Shown: one piece after another, positions 2,933-41,761 of the stretch
How positions within the stretch are numbered: the first letter of the stretch is position 1
Layout of the letters: the number at the start of each line of letters is the position of its first letter
Made by a program: the position numbers and the translations under genes
Sequence record: OM135583.1
Length of the DNA: 64,000 nt
Strand: one strand, 5' to 3'
Origin: Escherichia phage EP01
Notes under the pieces: generated by a model
Database searches by the model: none
Seen by the model: the letters and a program-made list of their open reading frames with translations, nothing else
Told to the model about the DNA's origin: nothing

Positions 2933-2975
2933 AGTATTTCCTTAGGTTAATTAAGATTTAAAATCCATGAGAGTA

Positions 2976-3152
2976 TTATACTCCGGATAGTTTGTAAACT
3001 ATTTCAACATCGCCTTTTGCTGCTTTATAACCTTCAGCCCAAGATACAACCGAGTTTTTATCTGAAGATTCAAATTCTGGCATTGGACTTTCATCAATGT
3101 TCACACAGTATGTTTCTTCATTTTCGTCAAACCAAATAGTTAAAGTAGTCAT
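2976..3152 (-). CDS. small hypothetical ORF (about 58 aa), below the ORF-track cutoff
   Basis: Found by manual reverse-complement reading; ATG at 3152 preceded by GGAGAAATAA Shine-Dalgarno; degenerate promoter/stem-loop cassette copy upstream (3153-3221). Confidence 0.35.
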   Translation of the reverse strand: MTTLTIWFDENEETYCVNIDESPMPEFESSDKNSVVSWAEGYKAAKGDVEIVYKLSGV

Positions 3153-3221
3153 TTATTTCTCCGCTTCTGTGATTGTTTTGATAAGTCTATAATAACACCG
3201 TCCTTGGTGTTTGTACACCAC

Positions 3222-3539
3222 TTATTTCATATTATTGAAATATTCTTCTGCGATTTCATCGTTATCGTGGTAAACTTTAGAAGACAGTTTAACATAACCT
3301 TCAGCAGTGAACATATTAATCACAACTTTTACAGTATACCACTGACCGTCTTCATTACCCATTACTGCGTAAGTTTCAAACATCGGATGGTCAGGACCGA
3401 TGACTTTAATATCATTCACTGTACGACCGAAATCTTCTGAAACGCATTTCATAAAGAAGTTGAACAGTTCGCCGTAATTATCCATTTCATTCTCCAAGTT
3501 GTTTTTCTGTATCAGTAGTTGATAGTTGTATAGTACCAT
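3222..3539 (-). CDS. hypothetical early protein
   Basis: 105 aa ORF; early promoter cassette immediately upstream (3530-3559). Confidence 0.6.
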   Translation of the reverse strand: MVLYNYQLLIQKNNLENEMDNYGELFNFFMKCVSEDFGRTVNDIKVIGPDHPMFETYAVMGNEDGQWYTVKVVINMFTAEGYVKLSSKVYHDNDEIAEEYFNNMK

Positions 3540-3559
3540 GGAAGAACGGGGATGTAAAC
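3530..3559 (-). promoter_or_regulatory. early promoter (TTTACA -35, 17-18 bp spacer, TACTAT -10) inside promoter/stem-loop cassette
   Basis: Plus-strand GTAAAC at 3554-3559 and ATAGTA at 3530-3535; same architecture as the IP-locus cassettes. Confidence 0.6.
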
Positions 3560-3692
3560 AGTTTTGTGAAAAAAATTTTTTAAAAAGTTTTAGGGAATTC
3601 TAGGACAGGGAGGGGCAATTAAAGGATAGGATAATATATTATAAAGGGTAGAAACTAAATGATTCTTAGAGAGGTCCAGAAAGGCCTAGATA

Positions 3693-3719
3693 CCAAAAAG
3701 CCCTATCATTTAGATAGGG
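3693..3719 (-). terminator. rho-independent terminator
   Basis: Stem CCCTATC/GATAGGG followed on the minus transcript by CUUUUUGG. Confidence 0.6.
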
Positions 3720-3727
3720 ATTTAAAA

Positions 3728-4291
3728 TTATTTATCTAGTTTAGCTATTATAGCTTCTGCGGCAGCTTTTAGTTTAGATGCGGTGTTAATACGATTTTTA
3801 ATTTCAGTATACGCATCGCCAAGAACGTCAAGGCTATCAGAATAAACGCTTACACTATTGCGTTCGCTATTTGAAATAGAACCTTTAGTTTTACGATCAA
3901 AATCGATGTACACGTCTTGAAGATCACGGGCTGCCTTCTTTGCATCATCCAATGCATCAAGAGCTTTATTCAAAGCATTAACGTATTTTTTAGTGTCGAA
4001 CATATTCTTAGAAATTTTAACAGGCGCACGTTCAGGAGTAGCTAAGGCAGATTTAGGAACCTGAGCGCCAGATGCCAGTTTCTTAGAAATTTTGAAAAAT
4101 GCTTTATTGAATTTATTTTCTTGACTCATCGTAAAAGAACTATTATCAATGTTATACATTTCAATAGCTTTAGCTTTCCACTTAAGAAAATCGCCACGGT
4201 CTTTTGGGTCCAATTGGAAGAATACTTTAGTAAGTTCTGCTTCAGATGGTAATTTTGCTGCTTCGGTTAAAAATTCGGCATAAGTTTTCAT
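3728..4291 (-). CDS. internal-protein-like protein with N-terminal capsid targeting sequence
   Basis: 187 aa; N-terminus MKTYAEFLTEAA matches the T4 IP capsid-targeting consensus MKTYQEFIAEA with a predicted prohead-protease site after ..TE; followed by rho-independent terminator. Confidence 0.6.
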   Translation of the reverse strand: MKTYAEFLTEAAKLPSEAELTKVFFQLDPKDRGDFLKWKAKAIEMYNIDNSSFTMSQENKFNKAFFKISKKLASGAQVPKSALATPERAPVKISKNMFDTKKYVNALNKALDALDDAKKAARDLQDVYIDFDRKTKGSISNSERNSVSVYSDSLDVLGDAYTEIKNRINTASKLKAAAEAIIAKLDK

Positions 4292-4379
4292 TTAAAATCC
4301 TTGAAATAATCTATCGGTTGGTTATTAATTATTTATTACTTTGTTATTATCCGTAACAGCGTTATCCGAGTGATTCAAA

Positions 4380-4728
4380 CTAAAAAGCCCCAACCTTTCG
4401 GTCGGGGCTAAGCCTTGCGGCAACCTTGTCGGGGTTCCACCTGCTAAGGCAAGTGTTTGTACGAAACGCCGGGATTCGAACCCGGTTATTAAGCAGTTGA
4501 CGCTACTTAATATTTTTAAAAGGCCATATCTCGACCATATCCGAACGTTCCGTCAAAAACGCTACTCGGCTTACGGCAAAGATATTTCCTCGAATCGATA
4601 ATTCGGTGCGCCGTTTCTGCTGTGATGTAAGAGGGCATCAACAAATCATAAAGATTTATTAACACAATTCCTTACCCAGGGAACATCAGTCCGACGACTT
4701 ACCGGTAGCGACCCGGTTTCTTGTTTGG
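4380..4728 (-). ncRNA. candidate small stable RNA gene(s) (by position, T4 RNA species C/D-like)
   Basis: About 340 bp with no ORF, between tRNA-Arg and the next early gene; contains a tRNA-like T-arm (CCGGG-ATTCGAA-CCCGG at 4469-4485) and several stem-loops; boundaries not determined. Confidence 0.3.
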
Positions 4729-4802
4729 TCGAGGCAGAAGGATTCTAACCTTCAACCAACGGATTAGAAATCCGTTGCTCTATACAATTGAGCTATGCCT
4801 CG
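4729..4802 (-). tRNA. tRNA-Arg (anticodon UCU)
   Basis: Acceptor stem halves 4730-4736/4796-4802; T-arm 4737-4753; anticodon loop UUUCUAA. Confidence 0.8.
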
Positions 4803-5470
4803 TAGTTAAAATTCATTTTTCGACCTTTAAACCATCCTTCTGGAATTGGGTCAGTTTTCTTAATACGTTTAGAAACTTTTTCATCTAATGAATGAATCCA
4901 CATCATACCAAATTGGGAATTCTTTTCACCTTGTTGGTGTTTATTTCTGGCGTGAGATTCTTTCATTTTATTAATAGTTTCAGGAGTATGGGTCTTACCC
5001 AAGAAAGATTTAGTATTTAAAAATTTCTCTCTATACTTAGGATTATCCCAAAGCTGTTTAAACCTTTCTGAACCCATTTTACGGTATTTTTCTTTAAGGT
5101 CTGGGTCGTTCTCAAATCTGATTTTAAAAGCGGCAGCTCCTTTTAAGGAAGCTTCTTTCTTTTTATCCAAATATTCTTTAGTGTTTAAATGGCCCCAACC
5201 ACCTTCACCACCTAATTTCAAATTATAAACATCAGGGCGCTTTAAAAACTCTTCAGTCACAATATTCTTTTCTGACTCAAACATAGAGGTTTTATCGTCA
5301 AAGAACTCTAATATTTCTTTAGAAAAATTTTCTATACCATACTTGTCTTGGGCTCTTTTTAATAATTTACCAGAACCCATATATCCATCATCTAAATTTT
5401 CGGTAGAATGAGCGCCTATATAGATTTTATTATTAATTTTATTTGTTATTTTATAAATGTAATGGAACAT
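4793..5470 (-). CDS. segB: GIY-YIG homing endonuclease (SegB-like)
   Basis: 225 aa; N-terminal GIY-x10-YIG module (HYIYKITNKINNKIYIGAH); sits inside the tRNA cluster as in T4. Confidence 0.8.
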   Translation of the reverse strand: MFHYIYKITNKINNKIYIGAHSTENLDDGYMGSGKLLKRAQDKYGIENFSKEILEFFDDKTSMFESEKNIVTEEFLKRPDVYNLKLGGEGGWGHLNTKEYLDKKKEASLKGAAAFKIRFENDPDLKEKYRKMGSERFKQLWDNPKYREKFLNTKSFLGKTHTPETINKMKESHARNKHQQGEKNSQFGMMWIHSLDEKVSKRIKKTDPIPEGWFKGRKMNFNYEA

Positions 5471-5511
5471 AAATATCTCCTATTTCTAAGAGTATTTATG
5501 CTCCCAAAATA

Positions 5512-5583
5512 TGGCCCTGGGTGGAATTGAACCACCATCTGGCGATTATGAGTCGCTTGCTTGAACCTTCCAGCTACAGGGCC
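5512..5583 (-). tRNA. tRNA-Ile (anticodon CAU, Met-type anticodon presumably modified to read AUA)
   Basis: Acceptor halves 5513-5519/5577-5583; T-arm GGTGG-AATTGAA-CCACC; anticodon loop CUCAUAA. Confidence 0.8.
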
Positions 5584-5589
5584 TTGATA

Positions 5590-5662
5590 TGCTGATTGAC
5601 GGAATCGAACCGCCGACGTCCTCATTACAAGTGAGTTGCTCTACCTACTGAGCTAAATCAGC
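5590..5662 (-). tRNA. tRNA-Thr (anticodon UGU)
   Basis: Acceptor halves 5591-5597/5656-5662; anticodon loop CUUGUAA. Confidence 0.8.
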
Positions 5663-5669
5663 GAAATTA

Positions 5670-5756
5670 CGGAGGCGATAGGATTTGAACCTATGAGTCG
5701 CCGGAGCGACTGCCGGTTTTCAAGACCGGTGCATTAAACCACTCTGCCACGCCTCC
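5670..5756 (-). tRNA. tRNA-Ser (anticodon UGA)
   Basis: Acceptor halves 5671-5677/5750-5756; long variable arm; anticodon loop CUUGAAA. Confidence 0.8.
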
Positions 5757-5758
5757 AG

Positions 5759-5832
5759 TCTCCGCGGCAGGATTTGAACCTGCGACATTCTGCTCCCAAA
5801 GCAGACGCTCTACCAAACTGAGCTACACGGAG
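5759..5832 (-). tRNA. tRNA-Pro (anticodon UGG)
   Basis: Acceptor halves 5760-5766/5826-5832 (one G-U pair); T-arm GCAGG-ATTTGAA-CCTGC; anticodon loop UUUGGGA. Confidence 0.8.
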
Positions 5833-5844
5833 TAAATTAAATTT

Positions 5845-5916
<72 letters not shown>

Positions 5917-5925
5917 AAACTTTGG

Positions 5926-6009
5926 TACGAGAAGTGGGACTCGAACCCACAAGGAAATCATTCCGCAGCATTTTAAGTGCTGTGCCTTTACCAATTTGAC
6001 CATTCTCGC
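5926..6009 (-). tRNA. tRNA-Leu (anticodon UAA)
   Basis: Acceptor halves 5927-5933/6003-6009; long variable arm; T-arm GTGGG-ACTCGAA-CCCAC; anticodon loop CUUAAAA. Confidence 0.8.
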
Positions 6010-6010
6010 G

Positions 6011-6083
6011 CTGGGAATAAAGGACTCGAACCTTTGCATCCTGGAATCAAAATCCAGTGCCTTACCAACTTGGCTAATTCCCA
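6011..6083 (-). tRNA. tRNA-Gln (anticodon UUG)
   Basis: Acceptor halves 6012-6018/6077-6083; T-arm AAAGG-ACTCGAA-CCTTT; anticodon loop UUUUGAU. Confidence 0.8.
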
Positions 6084-6180
6084 ATTATTAACAAAGGCTC
6101 TCAGGAAAGAACCCTTGATGATAGAGGGTATTAATCAATGCGATATGAGTTAATAATAACAAATAATTCTTAAAGCATAT

Positions 6181-6468
6181 TTACCATTTATGATAATACA
6201 TATTTACGATACATTCAAGACCCAAAGGATTCTTGAAAATATCATATTCAAGAGGACCTTTTTCTGTTTCAATAAAGAAATCAAAATTTACTGTATTAAA
6301 TTTACGGTCTTCCTTCACTAATTTAACTTGAGAAGATGAACGGTCAATGTAAACCTTTTCAACTTCAAAACATGTTAAAATGCCATAATCATCAATCAAG
6401 GCTTTAGCCGCATCTTGATCATATTTATATCCATTTTCAATGGATGATACTTTAGCGTAAAGAATCAT
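6181..6468 (-). CDS. hypothetical early protein
   Basis: 95 aa ORF between tRNA cluster and IP array. Confidence 0.5.
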   Translation of the reverse strand: MILYAKVSSIENGYKYDQDAAKALIDDYGILTCFEVEKVYIDRSSSQVKLVKEDRKFNTVNFDFFIETEKGPLEYDIFKNPLGLECIVNMYYHKW

Positions 6469-6470
6469 TA

Positions 6471-6653
6471 TTAACCTTTAGAAATTTTATCCATAACAAT
6501 AGCGATTAAACCAATTAAAAATGCTACTACAAGTGAAAAAACATTTTCTGCTGTAGTCAATAATCCGCATATAAATCCAACAAACATTGAAAAACTAAAA
6601 GCGGAAGCAGAAATTGCAATAGCAACATTTCGAATTAATTCACAACGTTTCAT
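6471..6653 (-). CDS. small hydrophobic membrane protein
   Basis: 60 aa, almost entirely hydrophobic (two predicted TM helices); early promoter cassette immediately upstream. Confidence 0.5.
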   Translation of the reverse strand: MKRCELIRNVAIAISASAFSFSMFVGFICGLLTTAENVFSLVVAFLIGLIAIVMDKISKG

Positions 6654-6714
6654 TTTATTCTCCTCAGTAGTTGATAGGGTAATAGTATCACACTACTACC
6701 CAGAAGTAAACAAC
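6654..6714 (-). promoter_or_regulatory. promoter/stem-loop cassette (PeSL-like) with early promoter
   Basis: CATTTTATTCTCCTCAGTAGTTGATAGGGTAATAGTATCAC...GTAAAC; -10 ATAGTA 6682-6687, -35 GTAAAC 6706-6711 (plus-strand spelling). Confidence 0.65.
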
Positions 6715-6939
6715 TTATTCCGCTCCAGCAGCTTTCAAAAGCTTTTTAAGATTAGCAGTGCCACGAGCAGAAAACGTGACTTTACCATCCTTTTCACTAA
6801 TAGAGCCAGTTAACTTAGAAAGTTTATCGCTAGGAATTTTTTTAAAATCACTTAATGTACCATCAAAAGTTTTCGTAACAATTGGTAGTTCATCTTCATG
6901 TCTTTTAGCTTCAGCGATAAATTTTTGATAAGTTTTCAT
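6715..6939 (-). CDS. internal-protein-like (capsid targeting sequence)
   Basis: 74 aa; N-terminus MKTYQKFIAEA = T4 IP capsid-targeting motif; own promoter cassette. Confidence 0.65.
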   Translation of the reverse strand: MKTYQKFIAEAKRHEDELPIVTKTFDGTLSDFKKIPSDKLSKLTGSISEKDGKVTFSARGTANLKKLLKAAGAE

Positions 6940-7007
6940 TTTATTCTCCTCAGTAGTTGATAGGGTAATAATATCACTACCCTATCTAAAAGTAAACGGT
7001 TTATAAA
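6940..7007 (-). promoter_or_regulatory. promoter/stem-loop cassette (PeSL-like) with early promoter
   Basis: Near-identical repeat; inverted repeat GATAGGG/CCCTATC (6959-6965/6980-6986); -10 6968-6973, -35 6992-6997. Confidence 0.65.
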
Positions 7008-7316
7008 CTATTTTATTCCGCGTGATGCAATTGTGTTCTGCCGTTTAGCACCAGTTTGTTTAAAGTCATGATTGTCGATTTGATCGGTACGAGCAACTCC
7101 GAATGATGATTTGATTTTAGCTTTAGATCCTTTAGTTATAGAAATAAACATCTCGGAAGCCCCTTTCTTAAAGTCCGAGGCGATTACTTCAACGCCGTTC
7201 TTAGCAAGTGACCTCAGAATTGCTTCCGCATACTCATCATCAAGACCCGCTTGAGTATAAATAATGAATGTCTTTGGTGCAGCCGCTTCATTGATAAATT
7301 CTTGGTAAGTTTTCAT
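7008..7316 (-). CDS. internal-protein-like (capsid targeting sequence)
   Basis: 102 aa; N-terminus MKTYQEFINEA; own promoter cassette. Confidence 0.65.
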   Translation of the reverse strand: MKTYQEFINEAAAPKTFIIYTQAGLDDEYAEAILRSLAKNGVEVIASDFKKGASEMFISITKGSKAKIKSSFGVARTDQIDNHDFKQTGAKRQNTIASRGIK

Positions 7317-7376
7317 TTTATTTTCCTAATTAATTTTGATAAGGTAATAGTACCACAACCCTATTTAAAAGTAAAC
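7317..7376 (-). promoter_or_regulatory. promoter/stem-loop cassette (PeSL-like) with early promoter
   Basis: Variant repeat CATTTTATTTTCCTAATTAATTTTGATAAGGTAATAGTACC; -10 7347-7352, -35 7371-7376. Confidence 0.6.
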
Positions 7377-7649
7377 TCATTTTAAATAAATTGCGTATTT
7401 TTTATAACCCGCTGACTCATGACGAAGACCCTTATCATTAGCAAAACGCTCAATGTTGTTAATTTGATTCTGGTCAAGTTCAGAGATGTCAAACACGAAA
7501 TAGTTACGTTTGTTACCAACTGTTACATAGTCAGTTAAATCAATACCATATAGGTAATTGATGTTATCAATCATAGTCTTGACAGCTTTGCTAATTTTTA
7601 CTTTTTCGTTAAAAGTAGCTTCATTGATAAATTCTTTAAATGTTTTCAT
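7377..7649 (-). CDS. internal-protein-like (capsid targeting sequence)
   Basis: 90 aa; N-terminus MKTFKEFINEA; own promoter cassette. Confidence 0.65.
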   Translation of the reverse strand: MKTFKEFINEATFNEKVKISKAVKTMIDNINYLYGIDLTDYVTVGNKRNYFVFDISELDQNQINNIERFANDKGLRHESAGYKKYAIYLK

Positions 7650-7725
7650 TTTATTCTCCTCAGTAGTTGATAGGGTAATAGTATCACAACTAAAACCCTA
7701 TGTAAACAACTTTGTGAAATATTTA
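7650..7725 (-). promoter_or_regulatory. promoter/stem-loop cassette (PeSL-like) with early promoter
   Basis: Repeat copy; -10 7678-7683, -35 7702-7707; ATAGGG/CCCTAT inverted repeat; A/T-rich upstream element. Confidence 0.65.
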
Positions 7726-8013
7726 TTACAAAAGATTTTTAGCAATAATCTTGAGATGTGCCGCAGAAATGTGTTTAGCTTTAAACAACGCAGTTTCTTC
7801 AGCAGGAGAGATAATGATTGTAGCACCATCCTTTTTAGCAGACCACCCATCACCTAGGTAAACAGTACCTTTGATTTCTTCGCCATCAACCAAACTAATC
7901 ATTGGTTTACCTTCTCGTCCTTTATTTGCTTTAATAACTTCAGAAGTAAGAGTAGCTTCAGTAATAGTAGAAACCGGGATAGTTGTAGAAGTAAATTCTT
8001 TGAAAGTTTTCAT
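7726..8013 (-). CDS. ipI: internal protein I-like (IPI)
   Basis: 95 aa; MKTFKEF.. targeting sequence; predicted cleavage after ..ITE leaves 76 residues, the size of mature T4 IPI*; adjacent to 57B as in T4. Confidence 0.7.
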   Translation of the reverse strand: MKTFKEFTSTTIPVSTITEATLTSEVIKANKGREGKPMISLVDGEEIKGTVYLGDGWSAKKDGATIIISPAEETALFKAKHISAAHLKIIAKNLL

Positions 8014-8085
8014 TTTATTTTCCTAATTAATTTTGATGAGATAATAGTATCACTACCTCATCAGCGTGTAAACAACTTTGTGAAA
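8014..8085 (-). promoter_or_regulatory. promoter/stem-loop cassette (PeSL-like) with early promoter
   Basis: Repeat copy upstream of ipI; GATGAG/CTCATC inverted repeat; -10 8044-8049, -35 8068-8073. Confidence 0.65.
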
Positions 8086-8782
<697 letters not shown>

Positions 8783-8783
<1 letters not shown>

Positions 8784-9508
8784 TATAGTACCTTTAGTGT
8801 ATTTTTAATTTTAGAAAAAAGTTCTTCAAGAGAACCATCGTTTGTAATTACTAAATCACCATCACGAATTGGCAATCCAGCTTCTGTAATATGAGTATCA
8901 TTGGATTTTTGACCAGGACGAACTACATGAATTACTGTAGCACCCATCGCCCTAGCCGCATCCATTTCATGATCTTGACGAGTATCAGGAACGATATAAT
9001 AATCATAACCTGAGTTAAATTTATCAAGATAATCTAAAGCAAATAATTTTACCCAATACATGCGGTCGAAGTTATTAACAATCAAATCCGTACCTAGGGC
9101 TTGCATCAGACGACGGACTGACCATTGATCTTCAATATTATTTATAACGTCAGCAATCTTGTTAAATGCTACGAAAGTAACTGATTCCTTTCCTTCGTCA
9201 TCAAAAACAAACACACCTTTAATTGGGATTTTACTATTAAGATAGCAAAATGCTTGTTCCATAATCGTAATTACTTCTAATTTAGTCAGATTTAAATTAG
9301 TCTCACGATCATAGTCAATTCCTTCAAACTCTTTACGAGTTAAGCAAGGATAGTCAGTGTTTGCTGCAAATACGCCCCATGCATAAGCCAATGCATCCTT
9401 AATAGGACCAGCAAGTTGATATTTAACTGCAGAATAATTATTCATGATAAAATCTGCGGTAGTATCTTTTCCACTACGCTTTACACCACTTAAAAAGATT
9501 AGTTTCAT
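8783..9508 (-). CDS. 1: deoxynucleoside monophosphate kinase gp1
   Basis: 241 aa; P-loop GVKRSGKDT; T4 gene 1 length and position. Confidence 0.9.
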
Positions 9509-25682: not shown

Positions 25683-27140
25683 ATGATTGAATTAAAAGAG
25701 TTACCTTTTGTTGATAGCGTTCCTGGCGAAGGCCAGGAACGTATTTCATGGATTAAAAATGGTGAAGAAGTATTAGGAGCTAGTACTAAGTATGGAAATG
25801 ATGGATCAATGAATAGACCAATTGTTTCCGTGTTTAAAAACGTCGAAGTTCTTGATGAAAATGTGGGAATTCTTAAAACTGCCATTGAAACATCACAGAA
25901 AGATATTAAAACAATTCAAGGAGTTTTAGATGTATCTGGTGATATTGAAGCTTTGGCCCAAATAAGTATCAATAAAAAGGATATTTCTGACCTTAAAACG
26001 CTAACCAGTGAACATACAGAAATATTAAATGGGACTAATAGTACGGTTGACAGCATTCTTGCTGATATTGGTCCATTTAACTCCGAGGCCAACTCTGTAT
26101 ACAGAACGATCAGAAATGATTTACTATGGATAAAGCGTGAACTTGGACAATATACAGGCCAAGATATTAATGGTCTTCCTGTTGTAGGAAATCCTAGCAC
26201 AGGAATGAAGCATCGCATTATTAATAATACTGATGTCATTACTTCACAGGGAATACGTTTAAGCGAATTAGAAACAAAATTTATTGAATCTGATGTAGGT
26301 TCTTTAACTATTGAAGTTGGTAATCTTCGTGAAGAGCTTGGACCAAAACCACCATCATTTTCACAAACCGTTTACAGTCGCTTAAATGAAATTGACACTA
26401 AACAGACAACAGTTGAGTCTGACATTAGTGCTATTAAGACCTCAATAGGATATCCAGGAAATAATTCGATTATTACGAGTGTTAATACAAACACTGATAA
26501 TATTGCATCTATTAATTTAGAGCTAAATCAAAGTGGAGGTATTAAACAGCGTTTAACCGTTATTGAAACTTCTATTGGTTCAGATGATATTCCTTCGAGT
26601 ATTAAAGGCCAAATCAAAGATAATACAACTTCAATCGAAGCTCTAAATGGAATCGTCGGTGAAAACACTTCATCCGGTTTAAGAGCGAATGTTTCGTGGT
26701 TAAACCAAATTGTTGGAACTGATTCTAGCGGTGGACAACCTTCTCCTCCTGGGTCTCTTTTAAACCGAGTTTCTACAATTGAAACTTCTGTTTCAAGCTT
26801 GAACAACGATGTTCAAAACCTACAAGTAGAGATTGGTAATAACAGCACAGGAATTAAAGGACAAGTTGTAGCGTTAAATACTTTAGTAAATGGAACTAAT
26901 CCAAACGGTTCAACTGTCGAAGAACGTGGATTAACCAATTCAATAAAAGCTAACGAAACCAACCTTGCATCAGTTACACAAGAAGTGAATACAGCCAAAG
27001 GTAGTATATCTTCTCTGCAAGGTGATGTTCAAGCTCTACAAGAAGCAGGTTATATTCCTGAAGCTCCAAAAGATGGTCAAGCTTACGTTCGTAAAGACGG
27101 CGAATGGGTATTACTTTCTACCTTTTTATCACCAGCATAA
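25683..27140 (+). CDS. wac: fibritin (whisker antigen control)
   Basis: 485 aa coiled-coil protein; C-terminal foldon [27 protein letters not shown]. Confidence 0.95.
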
Positions 27141-38493: not shown

Positions 38494-40059
38494 ATGACTA
38501 TCAAAACTAAAGCTGAACTTTTGAACAAATGGAAGCCATTACTGGAAGGTGAAGGTTTACCGGAAATTGCTAATAGCAAACAAGCGATTATCGCTAAAAT
38601 CTTTGAAAACCAGGAAAAAGATTTCCAGACAGCTCCAGAGTACAAAGACGAAAAAATCGCTCAGGCGTTCGGTTCTTTCTTAACAGAAGCTGAAATCGGT
38701 GGTGACCACGGTTACAATGCTACTAACATCGCTGCAGGTCAGACTTCTGGCGCAGTAACTCAGATTGGCCCAGCTGTTATGGGTATGGTACGTCGTGCTA
38801 TTCCTAACCTGATTGCTTTCGATATTTGCGGTGTTCAGCCGATGAATAGCCCGACCGGTCAGGTATTCGCACTGCGCGCAGTATATGGTAAAGACCCAAT
38901 CGCTTCCGGCGCTAAAGAAGCATTCCACCCAATGTATGGTCCAGATGCAATGTTCTCTGGTCAGGGTGCTGCTAAGAAATTCGCTGCTTTGAAAGCAAGT
39001 GATACTCTTGAAGTTGGAACTATTTACACCCACTTCTTCCAGGACACTGGTACTGTGTATCTGCAAGCTACAGAAGCTAAACAAATTGATTCCGCTGCAT
39101 CTGACGCAGACAAATTAGATGCTGAAATTAAGAAACAAATGGAAGCTGGTGTACTGGTAGAAATCGCTGAAGGTATGGCTACTTCTATCGCTGAACTTCA
39201 GGAAAGTTTCAACGGTTCTACCGATAACCCATGGAATGAAATGGGCTTCCGTATCGATAAACAAGTTATCGAAGCTAAATCTCGCCAGCTGAAAGCTGCT
39301 TACTCTATCGAATTAGCACAAGACCTCCGCGCTGTTCACGGTATGGATGCTGATGCTGAACTGTCTGGTATTCTGGCTACCGAAATCATGCTGGAAATTA
39401 ACCGTGAAGTTGTTGATTGGATTAACTACTCAGCTCAGGTTGGTAAATCTGGTATGACCCTGACTCCAGGTTCTAAAGCTGGTGTATTTGACTTCCAGGA
39501 TCCGATTGATATTCGTGGTGCTCGCTGGGCGGGTGAATCCTTTAAAGCTCTGCTGTTCCAGATTGACAAAGAAGCAGTTGAAATTGCTCGTCAGACCGGT
39601 CGTGGTGAAGGTAACTTCATTATCGCTTCCCGTAACGTAGTTAACGTTCTGGCTTCAGTTGATACTGGCATTTCTTATGCTGCACAGGGTCTGGCCACCG
39701 GCTTTAACACTGATACTACCAAGTCAGTATTTGCTGGTGTTCTGGGTGGTAAATACCGTGTATATATCGACCAGTATGCTAAACAGGATTATTTCACCGT
39801 AGGTTATAAAGGTCCGAACGAAATGGATGCAGGTATTTACTATGCTCCATATGTAGCTCTGACTCCGCTGCGTGGTTCCGATCCGAAGAACTTCCAACCA
39901 GTAATGGGATTCAAAACTCGTTACGGTATCGGTATCAACCCATTTGCAGAATCCGCTGCTCAGGCTCCGGCTTCTCGCATCCAGAGCGGTATGCCTTCTA
40001 TTCTGAATAGCCTTGGTAAAAACGCTTACTTCCGCCGTGTATATGTTAAAGGTATCTAA
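38494..40059 (+). CDS. 23: major capsid protein gp23
   Basis: 521 aa; N-terminus MTIKTKAELLNKWKPLLEGEG matches my recollection of T4 gp23. Confidence 0.97.
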   Translation: MTIKTKAELLNKWKPLLEGEGLPEIANSKQAIIAKIFENQEKDFQTAPEYKDEKIAQAFGSFLTEAEIGGDHGYNATNIAAGQTSGAVTQIGPAVMGMVRRAIPNLIAFDICGVQPMNSPTGQVFALRAVYGKDPIASGAKEAFHPMYGPDAMFSGQGAAKKFAALKASDTLEVGTIYTHFFQDTGTVYLQATEAKQIDSAASDADKLDAEIKKQMEAGVLVEIAEGMATSIAELQESFNGSTDNPWNEMGFRIDKQVIEAKSRQLKAAYSIELAQDLRAVHGMDADAELSGILATEIMLEINREVVDWINYSAQVGKSGMTLTPGSKAGVFDFQDPIDIRGARWAGESFKALLFQIDKEAVEIARQTGRGEGNFIIASRNVVNVLASVDTGISYAAQGLATGFNTDTTKSVFAGVLGGKYRVYIDQYAKQDYFTVGYKGPNEMDAGIYYAPYVALTPLRGSDPKNFQPVMGFKTRYGIGINPFAESAAQAPASRIQSGMPSILNSLGKNAYFRRVYVKGI

Positions 40060-40108: not shown

Positions 40109-40390
40109 CTACGCAATCTTAACTCGACGGTTGATGATGTCACGGAAGTCAATACGATTTTCTTGGATTTTCAGCCAGTTACCAGATTTGTCTTTGGTAT
40201 GGGTAGAATATTCACCGTTCCACCAGAAGTCAGTAGCATAAGCCATGGTTTCATATTTCTTAACTAGGGCATTCACTGCATTACCGTTAGGATTGGAACC
40301 ATATTTTTCTACCAGGGCTTTGATGTCTTTATCAAGAGCGGACAGAGTAGTACGAATAAAGTTTAACTTGTTCATTTTTAATCTCCTCAT
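40109..40390 (-). CDS. hypothetical small early protein inserted between genes 23 and 24
   Basis: 93 aa ORF on the opposite strand to the flanking late genes; driven by its own copy of the early promoter/stem-loop cassette (40406-40435). Confidence 0.6.
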   Translation of the reverse strand: MRRLKMNKLNFIRTTLSALDKDIKALVEKYGSNPNGNAVNALVKKYETMAYATDFWWNGEYSTHTKDKSGNWLKIQENRIDFRDIINRRVKIA

Positions 40391-40405
40391 GTTTTTGATA
40401 GGTCT

Positions 40406-40435
40406 ATAGTAACATGTGATAACCTTGCTGTAAAC
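40406..40435 (-). promoter_or_regulatory. early promoter in a PeSL-like cassette driving the 93-aa ORF
   Basis: TTGATAGGTCTATAGTAAC...GTAAAC; -10 40406-40411, -35 40430-40435; lies between late genes 23 and 24. Confidence 0.6.
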
Positions 40436-40441
40436 AACTTT

Positions 40442-40477: not shown

Positions 40478-41761
40478 ATGGCTAAAATCAACGAACTTCT
40501 GCGCGAATCAACCACAACGAATAGCAACTCAATCGGTCGCCCAAATCTCGTTGCTTTGACTCGCGCTACCACTAAATTAATATATTCTGACATTGTAGCA
40601 ACGCAAAGAACTAATCAACCTGTTGCTGCTTTTTATGGTATCAAATACCTTAACCCAGATAATGAATTTACATTTAAAACTGGTGCTACTTACGCTGGCG
40701 AAGCTGGATATGTAGACCGAGAACAAATCACAGAATTAACAGAAGAGTCTAAATTAACTCTCAATAAAGGCGATTTATTCAAATATAATAATATCGTTTA
40801 TAAAGTATTAGAAGATACACCATTTGCTACCATTGAAGAAAGCGATTTAGAATTAGCTCTTCAGATTGCAATTGTTCTTTTAAAGGTTCGCCTATTTTCT
40901 GACGCAGCGTCAACAAGCAAATTTGAAAGCTCTGATAGCGAAATTGCTGATGCTAGATTCCAGATTAATAAATGGCAAACCGCAGTTAAATCTCGTAAAC
41001 TTAAAACTGGTATCACAGTTGAATTAGCACAAGATTTAGAAGCAAATGGATTCGATGCTCCTAATTTCTTGGAAGATTTGCTTGCAACTGAAATGGCGGA
41101 TGAAATCAATAAAGATATTCTACAGTCTTTGATTACAGTATCAAAACGCTATAAAGTTACAGGAATTACTGATACCGGATTCATTGATTTGAGTTATGCA
41201 TCTGCACCTGAAGCTGGTCGTTCATTATACCGAATGGTATGTGAAATGGTTTCGCATATCCAAAAAGAATCAACTTATACAGCAACGTTCTGCGTTGCTT
41301 CAGCTCGTGCCGCTGCGATTCTTGCTGCATCAGGTTGGTTAAAACATAAACCAGAAGATGATAAATATCTTTCACAAAATGCCTACGGGTTCTTAGCTAA
41401 TGGTTTACCGCTTTATTGCGATACTAACAGCCCATTAGATTATGTAATCGTTGGCGTGGTAGAAAATATTGGCGAAAAAGAAATTGTTGGATCAATTTTC
41501 TATGCCCCGTATACAGAAGGTCTGGACTTAGATGACCCTGAACATGTAGGTGCATTTAAAGTTGTAGTTGATCCAGAAAGTTTGCAGCCATCTATTGGTT
41601 TATTAGTTAGATATGCTTTATCTGCAAATCCTTACACTGTAGCAAAAGATGAAAAAGAAGCAAGAATAATTGATGGTGGAGACATGGATAAAATGGCGGG
41701 TCGTTCAGATTTGTCTGTTTTATTAGGTGTTAAGCTACCAAAAATTATCGTTGATGAATAA
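40478..41761 (+). CDS. 24: capsid vertex protein gp24
   Basis: 427 aa; late promoter TATAAATA at 40442; terminator downstream. Confidence 0.93.
   Translation: MAKINELLRESTTTNSNSIGRPNLVALTRATTKLIYSDIVATQRTNQPVAAFYGIKYLNPDNEFTFKTGATYAGEAGYVDREQITELTEESKLTLNKGDLFKYNNIVYKVLEDTPFATIEESDLELALQIAIVLLKVRLFSDAASTSKFESSDSEIADARFQINKWQTAVKSRKLKTGITVELAQDLEANGFDAPNFLEDLLATEMADEINKDILQSLITVSKRYKVTGITDTGFIDLSYASAPEAGRSLYRMVCEMVSHIQKESTYTATFCVASARAAAILAASGWLKHKPEDDKYLSQNAYGFLANGLPLYCDTNSPLDYVIVGVVENIGEKEIVGSIFYAPYTEGLDLDDPEHVGAFKVVVDPESLQPSIGLLVRYALSANPYTVAKDEKEARIIDGGDMDKMAGRSDLSVLLGVKLPKIIVDE

Follow-up and report, generated by a model that had tools for sequence, protein, structure and literature searches.

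Between its homologues of the T4 genes 57B and trna.4, Escherichia phage EP01 carries a run of small genes, each preceded by a copy of the same promoter-bearing repeat, which we refer to as the cassette. We analyzed 64,000 nucleotides of this phage (sequence record OM135583.1); this whole stretch of DNA is called the window here, and coordinates are window positions unless another genome is named. A 5.4-kb stretch of it has matches in more than 1,100 T4-like phage records, and judged by these matches it is DNA of a Tequatrovirus (T4-like coliphage). The genes around the repeat are colinear with those of T4 and all lie on the minus strand: gene 1 (8783-9508), 57A (8541-8783), and 57B (8086-8541) are followed by small open reading frames (ORFs), trna.4 (6471-6653), trna.2 (6181-6468), seven tRNA genes, a seg-type endonuclease gene, and a tRNA-Arg gene. 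Beyond tRNA-Arg the order is still T4-like, with the rnaD/rnaC region and then the homologues of e.8 and e.6.

By position and by the protein matches of its genes, the interval between 57B and trna.4 is the hyperplastic ipI locus, and it carries ipI, ip9, ip7, and ip8. The 57B homologue is the conserved left-hand anchor of this variable locus. The first gene, ipI (7726-8013, 95 amino acids), starts with a 19-residue leader, MKTFKEFTSTTIPVSTITE, which ends in ITE; its product matches phrog_4363 (internal virion protein, E value of 1.6e-47), and the gene is 97.5% identical to T4 ipI at the nucleotide level. The next three genes are absent from T4 and have their counterparts in phage RB15. These are ip9 (7377-7649, 90 amino acids, leader MKTFKEFINE; phrog_7673, E value of 3.6e-54), ip7 (7008-7316, 102 amino acids, leader MKTYQEFINE; phrog_2667, E value of 3.6e-41), and ip8 (6715-6939, 74 amino acids, leader MKTYQKFIAE; phrog_8765, E value of 1.4e-26), whose products are 87%, 93%, and 85% identical to RB15 Ip9, Ip7, and Ip8, respectively. 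The four genes thus fall into four separate PHROG families, every one of which is labelled internal head or virion protein. The right-hand anchor is the conserved trna.4 homologue, which encodes a membrane-like protein of 60 amino acids (phrog_1692) without a capsid-targeting leader and whose family was found in nearly all of the loci that we mapped.

Internal proteins (IPs) are packed into the phage head by means of a 10-residue N-terminal leader and are injected together with the DNA. The T4 proteins Ip1, Ip2, and Ip3 are inhibitors of GmrSD type IV restriction enzymes, each of a different one. The capsid-targeting sequence consists of the first 10 residues, of which positions 4 and 7 serve targeting and positions 8 and 10 processing (PMC9026906; PMC3012670). 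The leaders of the IPs encoded here fit these requirements at positions 4, 7, 8, and 10, and their (I/L)-x-E end corresponds to the gp21 protease site. IpI, Ip9, Ip7, and Ip8 are therefore predicted to be packaged internal proteins from which the leader is processed. The same four-gene arrangement is present in the public genomes of KIT06 (99.9% identity over 6600-8100) and UFV-AREG1 (94%). GenBank entry Z35082, from phage RB15, has the order 57B-ip5-ip9-ip7-ip8-tRNA.4; its accession and gene names suggest that this is the record that accompanied Repoila et al. 1994.

The repeated cassette

The cassette is present in five tight copies on the minus strand, at 6654, 6940, 7317, 7650, and 8014, and one copy precedes each of ipI, ip9, ip7, ip8, and trna.4. 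A repeat search returned the copies as one group (6671-6724, 6957-7010, 7336-7389, 7667-7720, and 8033-8086) with 63 to 100% identity, and repeat families of 54, 66, and 92 nucleotides span 6620-6724, 6906-7010, 7295-7389, 7616-7720, and 7992-8086. When up to three mismatches are allowed, the 21-mer TTGATAGGGTAATAGTATCAC matches exactly the five cassette sites, with 0.00 matches expected from 100 shuffles, and the pattern GTTTAC-N18-TAYTATTA is found in all five without a mismatch. The repeats are direct and spaced 286 to 379 nucleotides apart, and the longest runs that they share exactly measure 45 (7650 and 6654), 39 (7650 and 6940), 37 (6940 and 6654), and 34 nucleotides (8014 and 7317). 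A preliminary description of this DNA had counted at least seven copies of a 60- to 75-bp unit. Five of these are clear copies, but the one at 3480 is a distant relative and those at 3153 and 40391 are unrelated promoters. The length had also been set too short: the homology runs about 33 nucleotides into the coding sequence, covering the leader codons, so that the whole unit measures about 110 bp. The description had further spoken of accessory genes flanked by the repeat; they are indeed flanked, but they had not been recognized as internal-protein genes whose leader codons lie inside it.

Read on the minus strand, the cassette consists of an AT-rich stretch, a predicted early promoter of the T4 type, an inverted repeat, a leader RNA of about 10 to 12 nucleotides, a Shine-Dalgarno (SD) sequence, and the ATG. 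Four of the five copies have an AT-rich segment of 16 to 20 nucleotides before GTTTAC, as in taaaataatttcacaaagtt (about 80% A+T); in the copy at 6654, which follows ip8, this segment is richer in G+C. The promoter has GTTTAC, 18 nucleotides, and TACTAT or TATTAT with TG before the -10 box, and this bears out the minus-strand anatomy proposed earlier, as all five copies show TTTACA or TTTACT, N17, and TACTAT or TATTAT with the upstream TG, followed by SD and ATG. The 5' arm of the inverted repeat lies within the promoter spacer, and the 3' arm comes directly after the -10 box. The SD region reads GAGGAGAATAAAATG or TAGGAAAATAAAATG in all five copies, and in four of them the ATG is followed by about 30 nucleotides encoding MKT(Y/F)(Q/K)(E/K)F(I/T)xE. 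The right half of the cassette occurs in two haplotypes, type A, CCCTATCAACTACTGAGGAGAATAAAATG, in the copies at 7650, 6940, and 6654, and type B, C(C/T)T(C/T)ATCAAAATTAATTAGGAAAATAAAATG, in those at 8014 and 7317.

The individual copies differ mainly in their arms. Copy 1, between 57B and ipI (8014-8090), has its -35 GTTTAC at 8073-8068 and its -10 TACTAT at 8049-8044; its hairpin (8034-8063) pairs GATGAGGTA with TATCTCATC with one G.U pair (z of -4.35), and its ribosome-binding site, TAGGAAAATAAAATG, is the GGAA form of type B. Copy 2, upstream of ip9 (7650-7725; -35 at 7707-7702, -10 at 7683-7678), has a type A ribosome-binding site and pairs ATAGGGT with ACCCTAT (7670-7701, z of -2.55), the 5' arm being shifted upstream; it is nearly identical to the single cassette that T4 has upstream of trna.4. 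Copy 3, upstream of ip7 (7317-7392; -35 at 7376-7371, -10 TACTAT), has the type B (GGAA) site and a weak hairpin (7339-7364, z of -0.20) with the 5' arm AATAGGGT and the 3' arm ACCTTAT. It is a chimera, since its 5' arm goes with ip9 and its 3' arm with ip7. Copy 4, upstream of ip8 (6940-7012; -35 at 6997-6992, -10 TATTAT), has a type A site and a perfect hairpin of GATAGGGTA and TACCCTATC (6959-6986, z of -4.35). Copy 5 (6654-6726; -35 at 6711-6706) stands upstream of trna.4 and thus of the tRNA cluster, also with a type A site, and pairs GGGTAGTAGTG with TACTATTACCC (6677-6701, z of -2.64). As had been proposed earlier, the -10 box lies inside an inverted repeat; four copies fold more stably than their dinucleotide shuffles, on which these z values are based, and the copy at 7317 is weak.

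Proposed exchange of modules between cassettes

In T4, only one cassette stands between ipI and trna.4, and window positions 6717-7643, the ip9-ip7-ip8 block, are missing. Both junctions lie inside cassettes: the copy at 7650 corresponds to this T4 cassette as far as the first few bases of the ORF, and the copy at 6654 corresponds to it from just upstream of the -35 box onward. RB15 differs only in the first module, with ip5 in place of ipI. The homology to RB15 covers the end of 57B, cassette 1, and the leader codons (8094-7980), is lost over the ipI/ip5 body, and is back at the start of cassette 2 (7724).

We retrieved 36 loci anchored on 57B and mapped the cassettes and ORF families downstream of it, which gave 37 loci for comparison. 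In these, the interval from 57B to trna.4 holds between zero and five leader-bearing genes that belong to at least 18 protein families and whose order varies. With C for a cassette, T4 reads C-ipI-C and the window C-ipI-C-ip9-C-ip7-C-ip8-C, and among the relatives we find C-ip5-C-F12-C (L003), C-F12-C (L034), C-ip7-C (L033), and C-ip9-C-ip7-C (L026), F12 being one of the mapped families. L034 is L003 without ip5, and the junction falls in a shared 24-nucleotide stretch, ATAATTTCACAAAGTTGTTTACAT. The cassette-bounded swaps that the preliminary description had proposed to look for in related genomes are seen in the comparisons with T4 and RB15, and the 37 loci vary in their IP content. Its statement that the cassettes mark out precisely those genes in which this DNA departs from T4 was too broad; it applies to the ip9-ip7-ip8 block but not to a 187-codon insertion, the loss of trna.3, or a replacement of e.7, all of which are described below.

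The cassettes themselves carry traces of exchange. When they are split at the core GTGATACTATTA, the left half tracks the upstream gene and the right half the downstream gene, and mismatched halves exist: a left half typical of the position after ip9 is joined to a right half typical of the position before ip7 in the window, L019, and L026. In one cassette of L019 (IMGVR_UViG_2706796299_000001, positions 735-800), GATACTATTACCTCATCAA, which contains the -10 box and the 3' arm, is duplicated in tandem, much as in the "recombinational slippage" that has been reported for degraded PeSLs, the early-promoter/stem-loop elements to which we return below. Pairwise BLAST of eight T4-like loci placed 27 of 42 internal homology endpoints in cassette-plus-leader intervals, with 9.1 expected, although these endpoints are not independent and a binomial p-value is indicative only. 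Four of the loci were left untrimmed, so that some endpoints lie downstream of trna.4; for the IP locus the test therefore errs on the conservative side. All five of the unique breakpoints in the window lie within cassette-plus-leader intervals.

The explanation that we consider likely is that of a hyperplastic ipI locus with one cassette per gene, in which the genes form early transcription units and the modules are exchanged by way of the cassettes. Each gene would be its own early transcription unit, transcribed from the promoter in its own cassette. The exact homologies of 34 to 45 nucleotides, all in direct orientation, could be used by the T4 recombination machinery, and recombination between cassettes would delete, insert, or replace promoter-plus-gene modules while leaving the neighbors undisturbed. 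Such exchange would explain why close relatives differ in their IP content.

It could also be that the copies are alike only because purifying or convergent selection acts on the promoter, the ribosome-binding site, and the leader, and that the genes turn over by other means, for example by illegitimate recombination or by co-conversion in the neighborhood of the GIY-YIG homing endonuclease gene (4793-5470). All conserved blocks do coincide with functional elements, this seg-type gene lies only 1.2 kb away, and homing-endonuclease transfer has been described as a parallel mechanism (Comeau 2014, PMC4122927). Moreover, the distant relatives L010 to L018 have IP genes that abut without a cassette between them, and yet their content varies. 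On the other hand, the identity extends over positions without known constraint, such as the spacer in the 5' untranslated region (AACTACTGA versus AAAATTAATTA), and there are two discrete haplotypes whose left and right halves reassort rather than a graded consensus. In addition, the breakpoints against T4, RB15, and the other mapped loci concentrate in the cassettes, and the cassette sequence is not shared by the other T4 early-promoter-like sites that we compared. We therefore think it unlikely that selection alone made the copies alike.

Alternatively, one ancestral IP gene with its promoter may have been duplicated in tandem, the gene bodies having diverged since and the cassette being a remnant homogenized by gene conversion. 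Direct repeats at this spacing, each with a similar leader, and products that are all small and start with that leader would be expected in such a case. However, blastp detects no similarity beyond the first 10 to 26 residues, the products belong to four PHROG families, and in other phages these genes are arranged in different orders and combinations and beside different partners. Such a pattern requires exchange between genomes and not local duplication, and we regard a duplication origin as very unlikely.

Several points speak against the explanation that we favor. Besides the dependence among the breakpoint endpoints, the relatives L010 to L018 indicate that cassettes are not required for plasticity; it is possible that there the leader codons alone provide the homology for exchange. 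The T4 records NC_000866 and AF158101 carry no promoter or regulatory features, our literature search found no T4 5'-end map, and a time-resolved omics paper on T4 does not mention the ip genes. Finally, among the related elements compared below, mini-circles and terminator activity are demonstrated for RB49 and phi1 only.

Hairpin and ribosome-binding site

Most of the IP-locus promoters have a hairpin around the -10 box. In the 37 loci there are 34 distinct promoters, and 27 of these fold more stably than a null in which both hexamers are kept fixed and the spacer and the downstream segment are shuffled (p of 0.033 or less), although the sequences are related, so that shuffle statistics overstate their independence. 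The arms differ from one promoter to the next and are nevertheless complementary: GATAGGGTA pairs with TACCCTATC, GATGAGGTA with TACCTCATC, GAGGGCTAT with ATAGCCCT, GTGTAGG with CCTACAC, GGGATAA with TTATCCC, and GATGATGG with TCATCC. At least six unrelated arm sequences occur among these promoters. A palindrome that overlaps the -10 box sits in the classical position for a repressor, and it could be an operator at which a dimeric DNA-binding protein shuts off the early promoters. However, only the complementarity is conserved, and at least six unrelated arm sequences point to a nucleic acid structure rather than to a sequence-specific protein site, so that an operator seems to us extremely unlikely.

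Among 12 other early-promoter-like sites of T4, taken from positions 1 to 50 kb and 63 to 78 kb of its genome, only two have such a hairpin, and both are near motB. At the IP locus the proportion is 27 of 34, and the hairpin thus does not follow from the promoter consensus. The two sites (T4 positions ~7168-7215 and ~8171-8218, our locus L039) lie near motB and motB.2 and have hairpins enclosing the -10 box of -19.7 and -18.0 kcal/mol; they are probably the T4 PeSLs of the motB hyperplastic region.

The complementarity can also be followed position by position. In a fixed register, 27 double-sided changes were counted versus 17.4 in shuffles, a value reached in 2 of 500, and 70% of the cells are paired compared to 30 to 61% for slid registers. 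A model of covariation in one fixed register is nevertheless supported only modestly, because the registers shift by up to 4 nucleotides between variants, and we therefore set this model aside and relied on folding each sequence against the hexamer-preserving null. These shifting registers also weaken our interpretation, as do the one window copy and the 7 of 34 relatives that fold poorly, which indicates that the hairpin is dispensable, at least transiently. Most of the poor folders are chimeric cassettes. The chimera at 7317 has the 3' arm CCTTATC where its relatives have CCTCATC, a change by which an A-T pair with the 5' arm of foreign origin is regained; in L026, ATGGGGT is paired with ACCTCAT.

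It may be asked whether the arms are complementary without being selected for it. Imperfect inverted repeats can be "corrected" by strand switching at a quasi-palindrome, a process first described in the rII region of T4, and such templated mutation, or repeated recombination, could leave complementary arms as a by-product. The differing registers and the modest covariation fit this possibility, as do the persistence in nature of chimeric cassettes with poor hairpins and the lack of the U-tract that a terminator would have. The restored pair at 7317 and the pairing in L026 fit selection but would equally result from templated correction. What argues for selection is the frequency of stable hairpins at the IP promoters compared to the other early-promoter-like sites, and for this reason we find an unselected origin of the complementarity rather doubtful.

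Classical intrinsic termination is an unlikely function for the hairpin: the stems are not followed by a U-tract, and a terminator scan found no site at any cassette. For the same reasons we dropped the "effective terminator" described for RB49 as a label for these stems. An Rfam search (E value of 1 or less) returned tRNAs and chance matches only, none of them at the hairpins. The 5' arm precedes the point at which transcription is expected to begin, and this restricts the hairpin to RNA that reads through from the upstream gene or to single-stranded DNA. Our best guess is that it acts as an attenuator of read-through transcripts from the upstream gene or as a stabilizer of the 3' end of the upstream message. 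It is also conceivable, though quite unlikely, that the hairpin is mainly a structure-specific recombination site, which would be extruded as a hairpin or cruciform while the DNA replicates or recombines and be recognized by a structure-specific nuclease of T4 such as endonuclease VII or gp46/47. If this were true, the IP locus would resemble an integron without an integrase, with "attC-like" sites defined by shape and not by sequence, and this would account for the kept complementarity, the drifting arms and registers, and the clustering of crossovers around the -10 core.

The ribosome-binding site may add a second regulatory element. According to the target sequences treated by Durand et al. 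2006 (PMC1702504), the consensus cleaved by RegB with the aid of S1 is GGAGAAUAAAA, a single-stranded GGAG with an A-rich 7-mer behind it, and GGAA sites are very poorly cut even with a perfect A-rich tail. The exact RegB target GGAGAATAAAA is present at 6653-6663, 6939-6949, and 7649-7659, in copies 5, 4, and 2. These three are the only exact consensus matches in the 64-kb window, with 0.1 expected; all belong to type A cassettes, and they lie in the SD region, outside the predicted hairpins and in an intergenic early context. The copies of ipI and ip7 (8013-8027 and 7316-7330) have GGAAAATAAAA, a GGAA form, in place of this target. In relatives, both forms of the site travel with the downstream gene. 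As the type A site is an optimal target for RegB and S1, the messages of ip9, ip8, and trna.4 are probably inactivated by RegB after the early period, and the GGAA form of ipI and ip7 should escape it. In T4, regB lies just outside the region that corresponds to the window. Compared to the RegB sites of that study (PMC1702504), the exact 11-nucleotide consensus in three copies is the shared feature; two cassette copies differ by their GGAA, and cleavage at the cassette sites is a prediction.

Neighboring sites and known systems

The window has further promoter-like sites, on the minus strand, that are not copies of the cassette. The early-promoter-like site upstream of the e.8 homologue (3486-3575) is conserved in T4 and is a distant relative of the cassette. 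The copy that had been placed there (3480-3560) shares only its ends with the cassette (TTTCACAAA..TGTTTACAT and CTATCAACTACTGA; 65%), has no inverted repeat (folding z of +0.17), and reaches an nhmmer score of 18.6 bits. It is the e.8 member of a second repeated early-promoter family that has no hairpin; in T4, the e.8 and imm.1 promoters (T4 positions ~70649-70696 and ~27033-27080) share an identical block of 36 nucleotides, GTTCTTCCATGGTACTATACAACTATCAACTACTGA. The sites at 3153 and 40391 are 26 to 47% identical to the cassettes in ungapped comparison and have only the invariant promoter and ribosome-site positions in common; both were rejected as copies on the grounds of identity and folding. 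At 3153-3221 there is an unrelated early-promoter-like site, GTGTAC-N-TATTAT, with a small palindrome of its own over the -35 box (z of -1.39). The other (40391-40440, within the site 40374-40440) has two mismatches to GTTTAC-N18-TAYTATTA and no hairpin (z of +0.35).

At 2949-3219, e.7 of T4 and its promoter are replaced by the site at 3153-3221 and an ORF of 58 codons (2976-3152, phrog_5461); in the alignment to T4, an entire module of promoter and gene, with an unrelated promoter-like site, has been exchanged while the flanks are conserved. At 40109-40440, an ORF of 88 to 93 codons, with the site at 40374-40440 upstream of it, lies between gene 23 (38494-40059) and gene 24 (40478-41761), an interval in which T4 has the homing endonuclease gene segD. 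A third ORF, of 187 codons (3728-4291), is found between rnaC and e.8, away from both of the classical IP loci, and is absent from T4. Its product starts with MKTYAEFLTE, a leader of the capsid-targeting type, matches phrog_2280 (function unknown), and is called "hypothetical protein" in 163 of the 164 phage records that match it at 95 to 100% identity; we consider it a candidate for an extra injected protein at a third locus. On each side of the insertion (3720-4378) there is a terminator-like hairpin (3692-3719 and 4379-4406) and no promoter cassette; the two hairpins share AC(C/T)AAAAAGCCC. The loss of trna.3 likewise involves no cassette. The blocks of homology to T4 overlap by 25 nucleotides at the trna.4/trna.2 junction (6456-6480), and this suggests that trna.3 was deleted or inserted by way of a short repeat at the stop/start overlaps. 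At 5512-5583, ARAGORN calls a tRNA-Met (CAT anticodon) where T4 annotates a tRNA-Ile; this is probably the usual ambiguity of the tRNA-Ile with a CAU anticodon and no real difference. Downstream of its IP locus, KIT06 (OQ349392) has trna.3 and ten tRNA genes, including those for Asn and Tyr, and has neither the seg gene nor the gene of 187 codons. The entire window has a mosaic structure, as KIT06 differs in the tRNA region, and this mosaicism is sharp within a few kilobases.

It is through the array of cassettes that T-even phages maintain a repertoire of injected anti-restriction proteins that can change rapidly, and this biology is established. Because a different GmrSD enzyme is blocked by each of Ip1, Ip2, and Ip3, it matters for the host range of a therapeutic or environmental Tequatrovirus which IPs it carries. 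In most database records ip7, ip8, ip9, and the leader-bearing gene of 187 codons are labelled "hypothetical protein", and the cassette together with the leader offers a reliable flag for annotating injected-protein genes. Our own additions are modest: the two forms of the ribosome site, predicted to be RegB-sensitive and RegB-resistant, the chimeras as footprints of crossovers, and the enrichment of hairpins compared to other early promoters. They are testable refinements and do not make the cassette a new kind of element.

The cassette is a PeSL-like shuffling element of the kind already known for T-even phages from work of 1994 and of 2010 to 2014. Repoila, Tetart, Bouet, and Krisch reportedly described a conserved motif at the T-even IP locus (EMBO J 13:4181, 1994). 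Arbiol 2010 credits them with the observation of "PeSL-like sequences" at these loci and regards the sequences as analogs, not homologs, of the PeSLs of RB49 (PMC2839356). The locus described here agrees with theirs, and with Z35082, in its position from 57B to tRNA.4, in the 85 to 93% protein identity of ip9, ip7, and ip8, and in its reading as a hyperplastic region that codes for injected proteins. The cassettes of RB15 are homologous (about 90% nucleotide identity), and one stands before each gene there too; the difference is the first module, ipI here and ip5 there.

The PeSL of Comeau 2014 consists of an AT-rich upstream region, a TTTACW-N17-TAYWAT promoter (in PST/T4), a stem-loop, SD, and ATG (PMC4122927). 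All of these sequence-level features are found in the cassette, as is a hyperplastic location beside insertions and deletions, and the label "PeSL-like" given in the preliminary description is therefore justified by the published anatomy (PMC4122927) and by the use of this term for the T-even IP elements (PMC2839356). The composite structure, the clustering in hyperplastic regions, and the adjoining insertions and deletions are common to the cassettes and to the PeSLs of RB49/phi1, PST/T4, and nt-1/KVP40 (PMC2839356; PMC4122927). In the original PeSLs the stem-loop mostly lies between the -35 and -10 boxes or overlaps the -10 box (Arbiol 2010, PMC2839356), and the stem-loops here resemble this commonest RB49 class. 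The T-even IP elements differ from those of RB49 in that their early promoters are of the T4 type, their stems are weaker and richer in A+T, and polyG/polyC is absent (PMC2839356). In PST the stem-loops are just upstream of the promoter (PMC4122927), whereas here they enclose the -10 box. A further difference is that the repeat reaches into the coding sequence, over the leader codons.

Integron attC arrays are similar in that single-gene modules are separated by short imperfect palindromes, structure is kept over sequence, and the content varies. The IP locus is not a member of this group, as it has no integrase, its modules carry a promoter each, and they would be exchanged by general homologous recombination. 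Lambdoid morons (Hendrix et al. 2000, discussed in PMC2839356) are likewise autonomous promoter-gene units on a conserved backbone. Morons, however, have no conserved flanking repeats and probably move by illegitimate recombination, whereas for the IP locus we propose that the regulatory repeat is the vehicle.

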